Positions 20,621 to 27,326 of a DNA stretch of 64,000 bases are shown in pieces. Made by a program: the position numbers and the translations under genes. This DNA is from Deltaproteobacteria bacterium (lineage in GTDB: Bacteria; Desulfobacterota; Syntrophia; Syntrophales; UBA2210). Under the pieces are notes generated by a model. It made no database searches, was not told the origin of the DNA, and saw nothing but the letters and a program-made list of their open reading frames with translations. The number at the start of each line of letters is the position of its first letter. Within the stretch, counting starts at the first letter, position 1. The stretch spans positions 405 through 64,404 of the forward strand of contig JAFGGB010000087.1 in NCBI GenBank assembly GCA_016930775.1, written 5' to 3'.

Positions 20621-20945
20621 TTTACACCGCCCTCCGGCATTCAACCGGCAGTCTGCCGGCCATAATAAAACCCGACGATATTCCTCTGACGATTGTCCGT
20701 CGCTCAGCAGGCTGTGCCGTCATAACCGGTACATCGATGCCATCGCAGCCGACCCGCTGCAACCGGTCGCTTCGCCGGTCTATAATAATAATGGCTTATA
20801 AGGCATTGTGTGGAGGATACCTGAACGGTTTCATTTGTCAAGAAGAGCGGCTGCTCCGTTGAACCGCCATGCCAGACAACCTCTTGTGTGGGAAGGCCCT
20901 TCTGTGCATAATGGGTCGCCATGAATTATACGGAGGTTGCAATCA

Positions 20946-21479
20946 ATGAACACTGGAAATCTGTCAGAGGATGCCCGGCAACGGGCCCGCAATCATCACG
21001 CCCAAGGGCTCAACTGCGCCGAAAGCACCCTTAGAGGCGTTCTGGAAGTGCTGAGAGAAGAAGGCGTCACCGACGTTTCCCTGGAGGCAACGCTCCTGGC
21101 CTCGGGATTGGGCGGCGGCATCGGCGGCAGCGGCGCCACCTGCGGCGCCCTCATCGGCGCCTCCATGGCCATCGGCACCGTTCATGGCAGGAAAGATCCA
21201 TATGCTCTTGCCACGTTCGAGGAGCGGAGGGATCAACTTAACGGCCCAGAGGGACTCTATCGAGTTTTTAATAATCTCGTTCATGATTTCAAAAAGACCA
21301 TGGGAACCACAAGCTGCGCGGAGCTCACGTGCCCCTATGACTACCGAAGCGAAGAGCGTAAGCAGTTCTGCAGAAATATCATCGGCGACGGAGCGGCCCT
21401 GGCGGTGGCATGGACAATCAGAGCCCTGGAAGAGGGATATCGTTTGCCCTACCGGTACAATATCATGGGCGATAAATGA
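20946..21479 (+). CDS. C_GCAxxG_C_C family (putative redox-active, Cys-rich) protein
   Basis: GLNCAES ... GGSGATCGALIGASMAIG ... TSCAELTC ... FCRN matches the family's spaced Cys/CGAxxG pattern. The ATG at 20946 is preceded by GGAGG. Confidence 0.75.
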   Translation: MNTGNLSEDARQRARNHHAQGLNCAESTLRGVLEVLREEGVTDVSLEATLLASGLGGGIGGSGATCGALIGASMAIGTVHGRKDPYALATFEERRDQLNGPEGLYRVFNNLVHDFKKTMGTTSCAELTCPYDYRSEERKQFCRNIIGDGAALAVAWTIRALEEGYRLPYRYNIMGDK

Positions 21480-21503
21480 CATCACCCTGTTCAGAGTCAA
21501 AAT

Positions 21504-22199
21504 TTACAGGATTCCCCTTTCCTTAAAGGAGGTATACCCCCGAGCGCTTATGATCAGATGATCCAGGGGCGTTATATCGACGGCGCGGCAGGCGCCCGTA
21601 AGCCTTTCGGTTATGATTCTGTCCTGTTCGCTCGGTTCAAGGTCCCCCGATGGGTGATTATGGACGAAAATGACCGCCGATGCTTTCAGATCCAGCGCTC
21701 GCTTGATAACTTCCCGGGGGTAGACTGCCGATTGATTCACTGTGCCTTTGAAAAGGTCCTCCATGGCAAGGATCGCATTGCCCGTCGTGAGATAGATGAC
21801 TCGGAAGATCTCCTCCGTCAGACCTGCCATGGAAAGCGACAGGTATTCGACCACATCCGCCGGTCCCCCGATTACCCTGAGATCCATGACGCCTTCCCGA
21901 AGCTGCCGCTTGGCCAGTTCCGAAGCGGCCATGATCTGGGCAACTTTGGCGCGGCCGAGTCCTTTCACGGATTTGAGATCCTTATCCCTGGCGTTCATAA
22001 TGCCCCTTAGCCCTCCGAACCGTTCGAGAAGCCTCCGTCCCAGAGCAACGGCATCGGTTCCGGCCGTCCCCGTGCGAAGCAGAATGGCAAGCAGTCCCGC
22101 ATCGGACACGAATGCAGCGCCTTTGTCCAACAGGACCTCCCGGGGACGCTCGGACGGAGGCCATTTCTTTATGCCGCCACTGACCCGTGGTGATTCCAT
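21504..22199 (-). CDS. radC: RadC-family JAB/MPN domain protein
   Basis: PSERPREVLL, LLAILLRTGTAG and an HhH region (GLGRAKVAQI). The JAMM motif reads FVHNHPSGDLEPSEQD. The start is moved to the ATG at 22199, which is preceded by AAGGAGG. Confidence 0.9.
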   Translation of the reverse strand: MESPRVSGGIKKWPPSERPREVLLDKGAAFVSDAGLLAILLRTGTAGTDAVALGRRLLERFGGLRGIMNARDKDLKSVKGLGRAKVAQIMAASELAKRQLREGVMDLRVIGGPADVVEYLSLSMAGLTEEIFRVIYLTTGNAILAMEDLFKGTVNQSAVYPREVIKRALDLKASAVIFVHNHPSGDLEPSEQDRIITERLTGACRAVDITPLDHLIISARGYTSFKERGIL

Positions 22200-22386
22200 G
22201 GAATCCTCCTTTTTCACAAATGCAGCATAGTTCGCAAGCGACAGAGAAGAACGCCGGCGCCCGAGCGGATCCAATTGTGAGGCGCCATTTTCCTTGTACC
22301 AGAAATCCGCCTTCACCGCACCTGCTATATCGATCTTCTCGGTCGAGGCAGCAACGAGAGCCTTGACAGAACGCATTAGTTGATAT

Positions 22387-23391
22387 ATGCATCTGTTGCA
22401 TGATACATCTATCTTGGGAGGATCTCTTTTGATTGAAGGAAATGCCCTGAATGCATTTAGAAAAAACCTGCGACGGCTTGAATGGTTTCTGGTGGATTAT
22501 CTGAAGGAATCGGGATGCTGCACTGATGTGACGCTTGCCCAGTGTCACGCCCTTATTGAAATCGGCGAGAAAGGCGGGGCGACGATCATGGAACTGGCCC
22601 AGGCTCTCGATTTGGACAAGAGCACCGTAAGCCGCACGGTCGACGGTCTTGCTGCCGAAGGATTGATTCTCCGGCAAATACATCCCTCCGATCGGCGATA
22701 TATTTCCGTGACCCTCACGGGCGAGGGCATGAAGCTCTTCAGCAAGATCAACGGGGCCAACAATGCTTTTTTCGGCACATTGCTGGATGTTTTAGAGGAA
22801 CATCAGATTGATGTCATCCTCGATCACTTCGGCATCCTCGTTGAGGCATTAACTGCGAGAAGAACCTCTCTTTCTCCGCCGCAGCCGTGCTGTTCCTCCT
22901 TCACGGGAGGGGAACGACCCTTCGTCGGCCGCACTCCCGAGGAAACGGCGGAAAAAGCCTTTTCCCTCTTTCAATCGGGTTTCTGCTGCAGCGAAAGCGT
23001 TCTTATGGCCCTGGCCGAACACTGGAATATTCGATCTTCTTTGATTCCCAAAGCGGCAACCGGTTTTTGCAGCGGCCTGGCCCGAACAAAGGGAACCTGC
23101 GGGGCCGTCGCCGGCGCCATTATGGCCGTCAACATGATGACCGGCCGAAACGAAGCGCATCATCCACGAGACCGGAACTTCACGGCTGTCGGCTCGGTTG
23201 TCGAGGGATTTATTAAACTCTTCGGTTCCATAAACTGCTATGACCTCACAGGCCTCGATCTTGGAACCGAAGCGGGTCGAAAAAAAATAACGGGAAGCGG
23301 TGCAATGGAAAACTGCTGGCGCTATGCCCGCGAGGCCGCACTTCTGGCCCTGAAGGCCGTCGAATCCGATGAACTGAAAGGAACATCATGA
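22387..23391 (+). CDS. MarR-type winged-helix regulator fused to a C_GCAxxG_C_C domain
   Basis: The N-terminal ~150 aa look MarR-like (LAQCHALIEIGEKGGATIMELAQALDLDKSTVSRTVDGLAAEGLILRQIHPSDRRYISVTLTGEG). The C-terminal ~150 aa carry FCCSES ... GTCGAVAGAIMAV ... NCYDL ... ENCW. An alternative TTG start lies at 22429, 6 nt after GGGAGGA. Confidence 0.75.
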   Translation: MHLLHDTSILGGSLLIEGNALNAFRKNLRRLEWFLVDYLKESGCCTDVTLAQCHALIEIGEKGGATIMELAQALDLDKSTVSRTVDGLAAEGLILRQIHPSDRRYISVTLTGEGMKLFSKINGANNAFFGTLLDVLEEHQIDVILDHFGILVEALTARRTSLSPPQPCCSSFTGGERPFVGRTPEETAEKAFSLFQSGFCCSESVLMALAEHWNIRSSLIPKAATGFCSGLARTKGTCGAVAGAIMAVNMMTGRNEAHHPRDRNFTAVGSVVEGFIKLFGSINCYDLTGLDLGTEAGRKKITGSGAMENCWRYAREAALLALKAVESDELKGTS

Positions 23392-23495
23392 ACGACATGG
23401 CATGGACGCAGAAACTTCTCGCCGATCCATCGGCACAGACACATTGCGCATCAACGACGCTAAGCTCCTTGTGAGGCAAATCCAGCGGGGTTCAG

Positions 23496-24557
23496 TTGAA
23501 CCCTCCACGCTTCGAGCAGCCGTTCGTCATCGGCGCGATCGACTCTTCATGCGGAGCGGTTCCCCGAATTTCCTCACTGATCACGTGGCGGGACCGTCTC
23601 GGGGCATTCAAGGTCCGCTGGCGCATCAACCGTATGGGTTATGTCGTCGATCCCGGTCTCTACGCCCTGGGTCAACCGAACAAAAAATCGCCGATTCTCG
23701 TCACGGCAAACTACAAATTGAGCTTCGACAAGCTGAGGGAACGTCTAACGGGCCGGGATTTCTGGATTCTCGTCGTCGATACGAAAGGAGTCAACGTGTG
23801 GTGCGCAGCCGGCAAGGGTTCTTTCGGAACGGAGGAACTGGTCCGCCGAATTGCCGCCGCGCGACTGACGGAAGTTGTTAACCACAGGACTATTATTCTC
23901 CCCCAGCTGGCCGGACCCGGCGTAGCGGCCCATCTGGTGAAACAGCTGTCAGGATTCAACGTTCGCTACGGTCCCATCAGGGCTGCCGACCTGATCGAAT
24001 ACCTCGACGCCGGAATGAAGGCGTCACCATCCATGAGGGAGGAATCCTTCTCCCTTGCCGAACGGATTGTCTTGGTTCCCGTTGAACTAGTTGCGGCATT
24101 AAAGGCGGCTTTCTTCATCATTGTTGCCCTGTTCTTTACGGCGGGTCTCGGCGCCGAAGGCCACTATTGGCAATCGACGCTTGCAAAAGGACCGGCAGCA
24201 GCGGCGGCGATTGGACTGGCTCTTCTCGCAGGCACAGTGGCGGTTCCGGTTCTCTTGCCGTGCATTCCCGGAAGAGCCTTCACTGCCAAAGGCATTTTAG
24301 TCGGATTAGCCGCATCGTTTCTTTTCCTCGTTCTTACAGGGACCTTTAATGAACAGGCAATGAATATTCTCGAGAAATCCGCCTGGATTCTAATTATCAC
24401 CGCCGCGACGGCGTACCTCGCGATGAATTTCACCGGCGCCTCCACCTTCACATCCCTTTCGGGCGTCAAGAAAGAGATGCGCTGGGGACTGCCGGTCGAG
24501 ATCGCCGGGGCTGTTGCAGGGATTGTCCTGTTGATCGCCTCACGGCTCGCCTTTTAG
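23496..24557 (+). CDS. hgcA: mercury methylation corrinoid protein HgcA
   Basis: The diagnostic cap-helix motif GVNVWCAAGKGSFGT is present (Cys codon at 23802-23804). It is preceded by SPILVTANYKLSFD and followed by about 5 predicted TM helices. The start is a TTG; see the finding on the upstream in-frame TGA. Confidence 0.9.
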   Translation: MNPPRFEQPFVIGAIDSSCGAVPRISSLITWRDRLGAFKVRWRINRMGYVVDPGLYALGQPNKKSPILVTANYKLSFDKLRERLTGRDFWILVVDTKGVNVWCAAGKGSFGTEELVRRIAAARLTEVVNHRTIILPQLAGPGVAAHLVKQLSGFNVRYGPIRAADLIEYLDAGMKASPSMREESFSLAERIVLVPVELVAALKAAFFIIVALFFTAGLGAEGHYWQSTLAKGPAAAAAIGLALLAGTVAVPVLLPCIPGRAFTAKGILVGLAASFLFLVLTGTFNEQAMNILEKSAWILIITAATAYLAMNFTGASTFTSLSGVKKEMRWGLPVEIAGAVAGIVLLIASRLAF

Positions 24558-24567
24558 GAGTTTTCAT

Positions 24568-24879
24568 ATGTCGAACTTTGAATATCTGCAAAATGTTGTA
24601 ACCCTTCAGCTCGATCAGGCGGCATGCATCGGCTGCGGCATGTGCATAGAGGTCTGTCCCCGGTCGGTCTTGTCGATCCCTGCCGGCATCGCTCGCATCG
24701 AACGGCGCGACCGATGCATCGAATGCGGCGCCTGCATGCGCAACTGTCCCGTTGGGGCGGTTGCCGTGAGATCCGGCGTCGGTTGCGCCGCCGCCGTGAT
24801 CAACAGCCTGCTGGGTCGAAAAGGCGGCTGCTGTTGCACCATCGACGAGAGCTCCAGCGATAAGGGGTGCTTTTGCTGA
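24568..24879 (+). CDS. hgcB: mercury methylation ferredoxin HgcB (2x[4Fe-4S])
   Basis: CIGCGMCIEVCP and CIECGACMRNCP clusters, a C-terminal vicinal Cys run (GGCCC) and a terminal CFC. It starts 11 nt after hgcA. Confidence 0.9.
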   Translation: MSNFEYLQNVVTLQLDQAACIGCGMCIEVCPRSVLSIPAGIARIERRDRCIECGACMRNCPVGAVAVRSGVGCAAAVINSLLGRKGGCCCTIDESSSDKGCFC

Positions 24880-24927
24880 TTATCGACTCTGTGCAATCAA
24901 ATCTTTCAATAAACATCGACAGGCAGA

Positions 24928-24956
24928 TTGGCACAGCCTATTGACGATTGTAATTT
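24928..24956 (+). promoter_or_regulatory. sigma-70-like promoter candidate for the DEAD-box helicase (long 5' UTR)
   Basis: TTGGCA - 17 nt - TAATTT. This would give a ~220-nt leader, as is common for cold-shock DEAD-box helicase genes. Confidence 0.3.
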
Positions 24957-25178
24957 GCACAGAATGCCCCGCCGGGGAAGCGATCGATGAAACTTTCTCG
25001 GCATTTCAAGGTTGTGCCGAGGGAAAATCAAAATATTTTCCTTGCATTCGCTTCTCACAAAGACTATAAGAGTGCCCTGCCTACGAAAACAATCAACTTG
25101 TTCCGTAATCAGAATAAATCAGAACAACATCGAGCTGAGAGTGCAACTTGGCTCCATGGAGTCAAGGAGAACTTTACA

Positions 25179-26780: not shown

Positions 26781-27326
26781 TCATCGAATCCGGTTATGAC
26801 AGTCGGGACACTCACGGACAAACCAGTAGAGTCGTTTGCCGCAGCTAGGACACTTGCCGGCTTTTTTCTGATCTTCCAGCCAACGTTCGATCCCCTGATC
26901 CTTGATATACTGTAAATTCTCGATGAGCTTTTCATGGTGAGAAATGTCGTTTACGACATGAATGTCCTTGAAGGCCCTGAGACGATCGCAGGGAAACTCT
27001 CCGCACTGAAAACACCATGCAACGTTCTGTTCCTCCGCACACGTTCGGAAACCATGCCTGCACTCCACGCAAAGACGGAAGACCCGGTCAGAGCGACAGC
27101 CGTCGCAACGGACTTCTTCAACGGGAAGGTCGTATGCTTGAGAAAGCTGTTCTAATTGATCGATATCCTTTTCCCGGCCGGCAAGATAGAAAGGGCACGT
27201 TCCGCAATAGATGCCGCAGATGCCGACGAGTTCTCTTCCACCGGATTGCGTCATGACTGTCTCGCTTTCATTGTGGCGGATTTTTTTGTTACCCAGGGAA
27301 TGCCTCTTCCCCCGGCGCCGGGCCAT
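26781..27326 (-). CDS. DUF3795-like Cys-rich protein
   Basis: GICGIYCGTCPFY, CDGCRS, CVECRHGFRTC, CFQCGEFPC and a C-terminal CPSCG...CPDC. The ATG abuts the upstream stop (TAAATG). An alternative start lies at 27254. Confidence 0.65.
   Translation of the reverse strand: MARRRGKRHSLGNKKIRHNESETVMTQSGGRELVGICGIYCGTCPFYLAGREKDIDQLEQLSQAYDLPVEEVRCDGCRSDRVFRLCVECRHGFRTCAEEQNVAWCFQCGEFPCDRLRAFKDIHVVNDISHHEKLIENLQYIKDQGIERWLEDQKKAGKCPSCGKRLYWFVRECPDCHNRIR

Follow-up and report, generated by a model that had tools for sequence, protein, structure and literature searches.

A window of 64,000 nucleotides (positions 405-64,404 of contig JAFGGB010000087.1, assembly GCA_016930775.1, forward strand) was analyzed around a regulatory gene located in front of the mercury methylation genes hgcA and hgcB. 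According to an initial annotation of this DNA, the gene located just upstream of hgcAB encodes a MarR-type protein fused to a complete C_GCAxxG_C_C domain, and a free-standing C_GCAxxG_C_C gene lies nearby with only radC in between. Both statements were borne out by family searches, with Pfam and NCBIfam matches of the fusion above the cut-offs. PF01047 (MarR) matched residues 49-104 of the fusion protein (E 8.6e-15, 54.8 bits versus a cut-off of 24.6), PF09719 (C_GCAxxG_C_C) matched residues 199-320 (E 5.7e-22, 78.5 bits versus a cut-off of 27), and the fused domain reached 57.8 bits on TIGR01909 (cut-off 47.4). The features of the locus are collected in Table 1. The stand-alone C_GCAxxG_C_C gene has an alternative TTG start at 20937. 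The radC gene is divergent from the fusion gene; its Pfam family match starts at residue 69 of 290, and its true start is probably located downstream of the first ATG of its open reading frame (ORF). The translations of the two genes downstream of the fusion contain the cap-helix motif NVWCAAGK of HgcA and the C-terminal CC of HgcB.

Table 1. Coordinates of the features at the hgcAB locus, given as positions in the window.
Feature	Position	Strand	Evidence and remarks
Stand-alone C_GCAxxG_C_C protein	20946..21479	+	PF09719 E 2.8e-21; TIGR01909 62 bits, cut-off 47.4
radC (RadC JAB domain and UPF0758_N)	21504..22376	-	PF04002 E 6.1e-41; PF20582 E 8.8e-25
Operator-like dyad 1, GTTGATATATGCATC	22379..22393		5.2 bits, weak; contains -35-like TTGATA; 16 bp from dyad 2
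Operator-like dyad 2, GTTGCATGATACATC	22395..22409		13.2 bits; overlaps TGn-extended -10-like TGATACATC
MarR_ars::C_GCAxxG_C_C fusion gene	22429..23391	+	320 aa from TTG 22429; Pfam, homologue N-termini
MarR_ars-type winged-helix domain	22429..22872	+	residues 1-148; Pfam MarR
Tail/linker	22873..22938	+	residues 149-170; joins both domains; carries Cys154/Cys155
C_GCAxxG_C_C domain	22939..23388	+	residues 171-320; PF09719
Non-coding spacer between fusion gene and hgcA	23392..23495	+	104 bp; closed ATG frame
hgcA (corrinoid protein), TTG start	23496..24557	+	NCBIfam NF040863 452 bits, cut-off 275; PF03599
hgcB (2x[4Fe-4S] ferredoxin)	24568..24879	+	NF040864 111 bits, cut-off 99; Fer4 families

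The ATG-started ORF of the fusion gene comprises 22387-23391 (+) and 334 codons. A start at TTG 22429 was favored over ATG 22387 because this ATG is situated inside dyad 1, while the Shine-Dalgarno sequence GGGAGG at 22416-22421, the N-termini of homologues, which align with the TTG start, and the database gene model P0001 (320 aa, start at TTG 22429) all fit the downstream codon. ATG 22387 is thus an unlikely start. The ATGA at 23388-23391, which had been read as an overlap of the fusion gene with the hgcA frame, does exist, and its ATG is in frame with hgcA. However, the 28-codon frame that it opens is closed by TGA at 23472-23474 and hgcA starts only at the TTG listed in Table 1, so that the two genes neither overlap nor are coupled at this position. 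A scan of the spacer before hgcA revealed no terminator-like and no plus-strand promoter-like site. Selenocysteine read-through of TGA 23472, which would extend HgcA, was considered as well and discarded, as the HgcA model match begins at residue 22 of the TTG-started ORF and the spacer is more variable between strains than the genes.

Designation of the stand-alone C_GCAxxG_C_C protein as a paralog was appropriate insofar as a second family member is indeed present. The relationship is distant, with 29% identity to the fused domain over 86 residues, indicating an old family member rather than a recent copy. A third C_GCAxxG_C_C copy is encoded on another contig of the same genome. The fusion is the sole MarR protein of its subfamily in this genome (96.9% complete). 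Among the 13 HgcAs compared from the same taxonomic family, 12 share 53-58% identity with the HgcA protein of the window and one shares 49%; HgcAs from other phyla are about equally similar. Further downstream, a DEAD-box helicase gene is followed, at a distance of 1.9 kb from hgcB, by a gene (26781-27326, minus strand) for a protein rich in cysteines that matches DUF3795 (PF12675, E 6e-17).

Integrity of the fusion gene was assessed with contigs from four public sequencing runs, which were compared over 22300-23600. One X2 contig, stemming from a different study, spanned 22300-23588 with 11 substitutions and no gaps, and contigs of X5 and X6 crossed the domain junction without indels. Inside the ORF, X2 carried seven substitutions in 1005 bp (four synonymous and three nonsynonymous); across the runs, 11 substitutions were located in the ORF and none created a stop. 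In the spacer before hgcA, X2 differed at four of 104 bp, as expected for non-coding DNA. Because the frame was intact and free of indels in contigs of X2, X5, and X6, an assembly artefact was set aside. The fusion was confirmed to be genuine and is neither an assembly nor a frameshift artefact.

A HMMER scan of 1.84 billion representative proteins yielded 6920 hits, of which the best 150 were inspected for coverage of the two halves. A fusion with both halves at ~35% identity would rank among these 150. Besides P0001, none of the best 150 hits covered both halves, the single matched stretch of each falling within the MarR half or within the C_GCAxxG half. A word-indexed search of 5.8 billion proteins likewise returned P0001 as the only fusion, and the fusion was absent from all 37 other genomes of the same taxonomic family. 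The initial annotation had made its reading depend on enrichment of the fusion beside hgcAB in other genomes. In the literal sense, such enrichment was not seen: the fusion was found nowhere else. When the single fusion protein served as query for related loci, it retrieved no relative, and an alignment-based scan was needed.

The MarR half was aligned with homologues encoded directly upstream of hgcA elsewhere and with the best database matches. Across these 30 aligned homologues, C31, Q38, C39, and H40 are invariant within the motif sCCGvTxAQCHxLxEIG. In the window protein, Cys30/Cys31 are encoded at 22516-22521 (GCCTD) and Cys39 (QCH) at 22543-22545. Most of the 30 homologues possess a C-terminal tail with a cysteine or a cysteine pair, and Cys154/Cys155 of the window protein (22888-22893) align there. 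The subfamily profile matched 114 solved MarR-type sequences at E <= 1e-5. This cysteine pattern resembles that of the Achromobacter sp. As-55 protein AdMarR_ars, an autoregulated repressor that is released from DNA by As(III) as well as Sb(III) and needs Cys36, Cys37, and Cys157 for the response to As(III) (10.1101/2021.08.12.456183). The two proteins share the MarR fold, a vicinal cysteine pair before the winged helix, and a C-terminal cysteine about 120 residues further on (positions 36/37/157 in AdMarR_ars and 30/31/154-155 in the window protein). Relatives of both head ars-type genes, namely arsN in Yu et al. 2021 and genes for ArsM, ArsN1-like, and ArsN2 proteins here. The differences are that the window operon contains hgcAB, which is absent from Yu et al. 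2021, and that a C_GCAxxG_C_C domain sits on the cysteine tail. Judged from the cysteine pattern, the MarR half is assigned to the MarR_ars subfamily; ars-type genes adjoin its relatives, whereas its own neighbors are hgcAB. Since it carries the conserved MarR_ars cysteine set, the MarR half itself is the likely sensor. The initial annotation had envisaged an undescribed thiol-, metal-, or corrinoid-sensing switch for hgcAB. A cysteine-based switch responding to metal(loid)s or thiols is very probable, but the regulator type has been known as MarR_ars since 2021, and nothing points to corrinoids.

An alignment-based MarR scan yielded 318 relatives, of which the best 80 loci were kept and their neighboring genes called with a crude ORF caller. 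In 24 of these 80 loci the MarR gene adjoins hgcA. The next gene encodes a Methyltransf_31 enzyme of 267-312 aa in 23/80 loci, one of these being a 442-aa form fused to a GNAT domain, and the single Methyltransf_31 neighbor tested was an arsenite methyltransferase, ArsM (NF008823, 298 bits versus a cut-off of 263). A GNAT protein follows in 15/80 loci. Three of these were tested: one was ArsN2 (147 versus 125 bits), and two were ArsN1a-like with scores below the cut-off (140 and 125 versus 170 bits). A small Methyltransf_11 enzyme is encoded next in 4/80 loci; in another 4/80, the next gene is one for a cysteine synthase and precedes a MATE pump gene. Genes for ArsR, ArsD, and ArsC-type phosphatases (LMWPc) also occur near the MarR relatives. 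At two loci (L135 and L146), the MarR gene precedes genes for a small Methyltransf_11 enzyme and a protein of the PEP-mutase/isocitrate-lyase family, which hints at organo-phosphonate or organo-arsenical chemistry.

These neighborhoods bear on the question of what the cysteines perceive. Oxidants or electrophiles might be sensed via disulfides, as in OhrR/MarR-type thiol switches, rather than metalloids. Vicinal or paired cysteines can form disulfides, and genes downstream of some relatives, which encode a cysteine synthase, a MATE efflux protein, and a fused Glu-Cys ligase, would fit thiol stress. The dominant neighbors, however, are ArsM, ArsN-type GNATs, ArsR, ArsD, and ArsC-like proteins, and the characterized member of the subfamily answers As(III)/Sb(III). 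We thus regard a thiol switch as very improbable and a metalloid as the more plausible ligand of the MarR half.

The neighborhoods were also surveyed from the side of hgcA, using the 80 loci closest to the HgcA of the window. Of these, 71 were evaluable; three lacked a called hgcA and six lay at the edge of their contig. Directly upstream of hgcA is a gene for ArsR in 19/71 evaluable loci, the MarR type described here in 9/71 (11 when the miscalled loci L005 and L033 are counted), an ArsC-like phosphatase in 7/71, and an AbrB/MazE-type protein in 1/71. Within the same taxonomic family, 14 of 38 genomes possess hgcA, the genome of the window included, and in about 10 of these 14 the gene is preceded by MarR or by the operator described below. 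In most of the hgcA-positive same-family genomes (L173-L177, L178-L191), hgcAB is headed by a second cysteine-rich MarR branch (CQAARCCRQDSxFCEGVTFSQF..., C-terminal CxC), which is 23-27% identical to the MarR half of the window and has the same operator consensus. A single strong dyad (18-24 bits) abuts the ATG in this branch, suggesting a leaderless start. A Yip1-domain membrane protein is encoded upstream of MarR-hgcA (L182, G019) or directly upstream of hgcA (L185, G018) in two genomes of the family.

A conserved 15-bp dyad, GTTGYA-WWW-TRCAAC, was found upstream of these MarR genes, usually in two copies 16 bp apart. In the upstream regions of the MarR relatives, the second copy overlaps a TACAAT-like -10 element. 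The consensus was defined here; none was found in the text of Yu et al. 2021. A matrix trained on the same upstream regions that it scores was applied to 83 that are non-identical; 73 contained a dyad of at least 9 bits, and 51 contained two or more with 16-bp spacing. As a control, the genome of the window (3.12 Mb) contained 73 sites of at least 10 bits. In the 80 hgcA loci (852,780 bp), 19 sites scored at least 14 bits, and 12 of them were located at or within ~70 bp upstream of a MarR gene start. At seven loci the gene order is hgcA-hgcB-MarR, and there the dyad stands in front of hgcA and not in front of MarR, in tandem in five of the seven. The operator thus follows the head of the operon, which is our strongest evidence that hgcAB is a direct target of the regulator.

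In the window, the two operator-like dyads precede the regulator gene (Table 1). The genome contains 13 sites that score at least as high as dyad 2, corresponding to ~2.5e-4 expected per 60 bp. The initial annotation had proposed binding tests on the spacer at 23.39-23.50 kb and on 22.2-22.4 kb. No operator-like site of at least 9 bits was detected in the spacer, and the predicted operator is located at 22379-22409, upstream of the regulator gene. A sigma-70 consensus scan of 22150-25100 returned no plus-strand promoter; a promoter is predicted at 22380-22409 from reading by eye and from analogy with the relatives. The best other operator-like site of the window, GTTCTATATTGCAAC at 1190-1204 (14.9 bits), is positioned at the start of an ORF (1188-1832) and may be a chance match.

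The C-terminal half contains the four family cysteines, Cys187, Cys224, Cys270, and Cys296 (FCCSES, GTCGAVAG, NCYDL, ENCW), and an intact glycine motif. In 53 aligned sequences, C60, C106, and C132 are invariant and C23 is nearly so. A model of the domain predicted from this alignment was all-helical, with a predicted local distance difference test score (pLDDT) of 95 and a predicted template-modeling score (pTM) of 0.90. In an exhaustive structure comparison, the best match was the split-Soret cytochrome c 1h21_A (Z 15.3, root mean square deviation 2.8 A over 140 of 156 residues); L-serine dehydratase (Z 6.5) and CyuA (Z 6.1, solved with [2Fe-2S] clusters according to its entry title) followed. 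Foldseek also matched 1H21 (template-modeling score 0.69). The single C-terminal domain sequence found no match among solved structures; the family profile matched 1H21 with E 1.2e-4, the CGAxxGA motif and the last cysteine being aligned, which accounts for only two of the four cysteines.

The fused domain superposes on residues 22-195 of the Desulfovibrio desulfuricans split-Soret cytochrome c (PDB 1H21, entitled 'A novel iron centre...') and, unlike that protein, is devoid of the haem-binding part. Fold and profile show the C-terminal domain to be a homologue of the domain that carries the non-haem iron centre in this cytochrome. For 1H21, that centre was reportedly described in 2003 as a [2Fe-2S] cluster held by four cysteines. 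Given the homology to the iron-centre domain, the fused domain probably binds an iron-sulfur (Fe-S) cluster or another thiophilic metal. A resemblance to Fe-S regulators of the SoxR/IscR/Rrf2 type would be one of possible working only, suggested by the iron-centre fold match, and does not imply membership in these families.

In an alternative reading, which is the strong form of the switch envisaged in the initial annotation, the C_GCAxxG_C_C domain would be the principal sensor. Redox state, oxidants, or metal attack on the cluster would be registered by its Fe-S centre or by its thiols and would drive the MarR half on or off DNA, as in cluster-based regulators. Sensor domains fused to DNA-binding domains are the usual build of one-component regulators, and the domain, which has an iron-centre fold, directly continues the cysteine tail of the predicted inducer site. 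In stand-alone relatives, however, the cysteines of the MarR half are enough by themselves, and the window protein has kept all of them. Moreover, the fusion is unique, and every other examined locus has the domain as a separate or an enzyme-fused protein. We consider it unlikely that the C-terminal domain has taken over as principal sensor, and continue to assign this function to the MarR half. A complex prediction for two MarR halves and one C_GCAxxG half gave a score of 0.00 in a run without controls and carries no verdict in either direction.

Of the 80 MarR loci, 14 possess a separate C_GCAxxG gene at most 2.5 kb downstream of MarR (13 if a weak fragment is left out), and in six the two genes are directly adjacent. 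Among these loci, the three C_GCAxxG proteins nearest to the fused domain (42-46% identity) adjoin the closest MarRs, in Pseudomonadota-type metagenome-assembled genomes (MAGs). In the set of 80 hgcA loci, C_GCAxxG occurred in 3 of the 12 loci with this MarR (11 with MarR directly upstream of hgcA plus L062) and in none of the 68 loci without it, showing that C_GCAxxG goes with the regulator and not with hgcA as such. C_GCAxxG, MarR, and hgcA are arranged in this order as three separate genes in the same-family genomes G024, G027, and G037; in G001, one contig ends with C_GCAxxG-MarR and another begins with hgcA. The fused half is most similar to the C_GCAxxG proteins of these four genomes (46-52% identity), whose MarRs belong to the second branch mentioned above. 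It is the unfused parts that are enriched: MarR beside hgcA (24/80), C_GCAxxG beside MarR (14/80), and all three together in same-family genomes.

In other proteins, C_GCAxxG is fused to enzymes. Eight fusions to ArsN2-type GNATs were found, in both orders and with four above the ArsN2 cut-off, and two fusions to DVU_1556-like methyltransferases. A PALP (cysteine-synthase-like)::C_GCAxxG_C_C fusion is encoded ~6 kb downstream of MarR-hgcAB in a Bacillota MAG (L077:11617-13008), its ORF running off the end of the locus. Genes of the ArsN2, DVU_1556-like methyltransferase, and PALP types, which supply these partners, are also found after this MarR. A dihydrofolate reductase::C_GCAxxG_C_C fusion (P0094, 315 aa) was also noticed; a connection with methyl transfer through folate is no more than speculation. 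DVU_1555/DVU_1556 (NF045669/NF045667) represent a catalogued pair of a C_GCAxxG protein and a small S-adenosylmethionine-dependent methyltransferase, the definition of which includes neither a regulator nor hgcAB. Here, Methyltransf_11 enzymes with NF045667 scores short of the cut-off are encoded after this MarR and also occur fused to C_GCAxxG. On the DVU_1555 family model NF045669, the fused domain scored 52.2 bits, below the cut-off of 103.

From this company one may tentatively picture the C_GCAxxG_C_C proteins of this clade as Fe-S (or thiol/selenol) accessories of ArsM, ArsN2, methyltransferase, and HgcAB systems, possibly acting as electron or metalloid donors. At the locus studied here, such an accessory would have become a coincidence switch on the hgcAB repressor, with hgcAB released only if the MarR cysteines bind a soft metalloid and the iron centre is in a given state, set by redox conditions or by cluster damage through metals. 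We hold this two-signal version to be rather unlikely.

A neutral accident was weighed as well. If the stop codon between two neighboring genes had simply been lost, the halves could work independently, or the C-terminal half could be inert, and the protein would function as an ordinary MarR_ars. Such an origin would agree with occurrence in one lineage only and with the arrangement at the closest MarRs, where MarR and C_GCAxxG are adjacent genes in this order. A Shine-Dalgarno-like GGGAGGGG, with no start codon after it, is present in the linker-coding DNA at ~22904-22911, possibly a leftover from a time when the halves were separate genes. On the other hand, none of the four family cysteines has been lost, the glycine motif is preserved, the frame has been kept in strains ~1% apart, and the domain model is confident (pLDDT 95). 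An inert or independent C-terminal half therefore appears improbable to us.

The reading that we prefer, with a probability of about 0.65 for the whole, is that of a metalloid-sensing, autoregulated hgcAB repressor that captured a neighboring accessory gene. The regulator gene, hgcA, and hgcB would form a three-gene operon, and the fusion protein would repress its own gene together with hgcAB. The N-terminal 148 residues would act as a winged-helix dimer that binds the dyads at 22379-22409, overlapping the promoter, and blocks transcription. The operator assignment derives from comparative genomics, and dimerization, DNA binding, and repression are what we infer for the protein. A soft trivalent metalloid or metal would be coordinated by Cys30/Cys31 together with Cys154/Cys155 of the tail, upon which the repressor would leave the DNA; this release step is suggested by motif conservation and by the published mutant data for AdMarR_ars. 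The example of AdMarR_ars makes As(III) or Sb(III) the candidate inducers, with Hg(II) as a further possibility. The C_GCAxxG_C_C domain, usually encoded by a gene of its own that accompanies this type of regulator, would have been captured by fusion onto the cysteine-bearing tail. Most likely, the fused domain keeps the accessory role that the free protein has in this regulon. Because of its position on the tail that would supply the third ligand of the inducer site, it could also adjust induction or gate that site.

Several observations speak against this reading of a metalloid-responsive hgcAB repressor with a captured accessory domain. The fusion is confined to one lineage, so that selection for the fused state is unproven, and the seven between-strain substitutions in the ORF are too few for a test of selection. 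The operator of the window is degenerate, with 13.2 and 5.2 bits compared with 18-24 bits in relatives, and 12 other sites in the genome score at least as high as dyad 2. No ArsM above the cut-off was found in the genome of the window, and an arsenic role is not evident there. In the same-family relatives, the operator is located between C_GCAxxG and MarR, leaving C_GCAxxG upstream of it; no site of at least 11 bits precedes C_GCAxxG, and the gene is apparently followed by a hairpin and a T-run (read by eye, not scanned for). C_GCAxxG may thus be transcribed on its own, outside the regulon, in these relatives. Finally, NCBIfam names the C_GCAxxG family '(seleno)protein', and because some members are selenoproteins, a redox thiol or selenol role fits as well as that of a cluster ligand.

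Among known systems, the closest counterpart in position is ArsR2 of Pseudodesulfovibrio mercurii ND132, reported in the accessible part of Gionfriddo et al. as an ArsR-like, arsenic-responsive regulator of hgcAB that is encoded upstream and co-transcribed (10.1101/2022.10.17.512643). ArsR2 and the fusion protein are both cysteine-rich metalloregulators encoded in the same place and with the same regulatory role, which is a predicted one here. They differ in that ArsR2 has an ArsR/SmtB fold (PF01022) with a four-cysteine site; the term 'MarR' does not occur in that part of the text. The same part states that hgcAB expression does not track mercury, and the sole regulator tested was the ArsR-like one in a single Desulfovibrio-type strain. 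MarR-family genes near hgcA are mentioned for two strains in one sentence, by COG class only, in the accessible part of a 2023 paper (PMC10349881). These genes have the same position relative to hgcA; that part describes no cysteines, operator, arsenic link, or fusion. In our literature search, which covered papers without their supplements, this sentence was the only appearance in print of a MarR before hgcAB, as far as the accessible text goes, and no paper describing a MarR_ars-hgcAB or C_GCAxxG link was found. The accessible parts of the literature naming C_GCAxxG_C_C gave no function for the family. What is known already is the MarR_ars regulator type; what is new is the unique fusion, the recurrent association of MarR_ars and C_GCAxxG with hgcAB and ars genes, and the homology to an iron-centre domain as a functional lead.

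The widespread regulator type described here is the second one known to precede hgcAB, and it now comes with a defined predicted operator, and the gene neighbors of its relatives belong to arsenic methylation and arsenic-antibiotic resistance. The occurrence of a MarR_ars-type regulator before hgcAB strengthens the arsenic-mercury link. For the C_GCAxxG_C_C family, the fusion, the repeated adjacency to the regulator, and the fusions to ArsN2, methyltransferase, and cysteine-synthase-like proteins provide a first concrete functional context, to which the iron-centre domain adds a structural lead. Should the two-signal version prove true, the protein would be the first two-input switch of hgcAB and would give the C_GCAxxG_C_C family its first functional assignment. 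The fusion offers a testable idea of what turns mercury methylation on.

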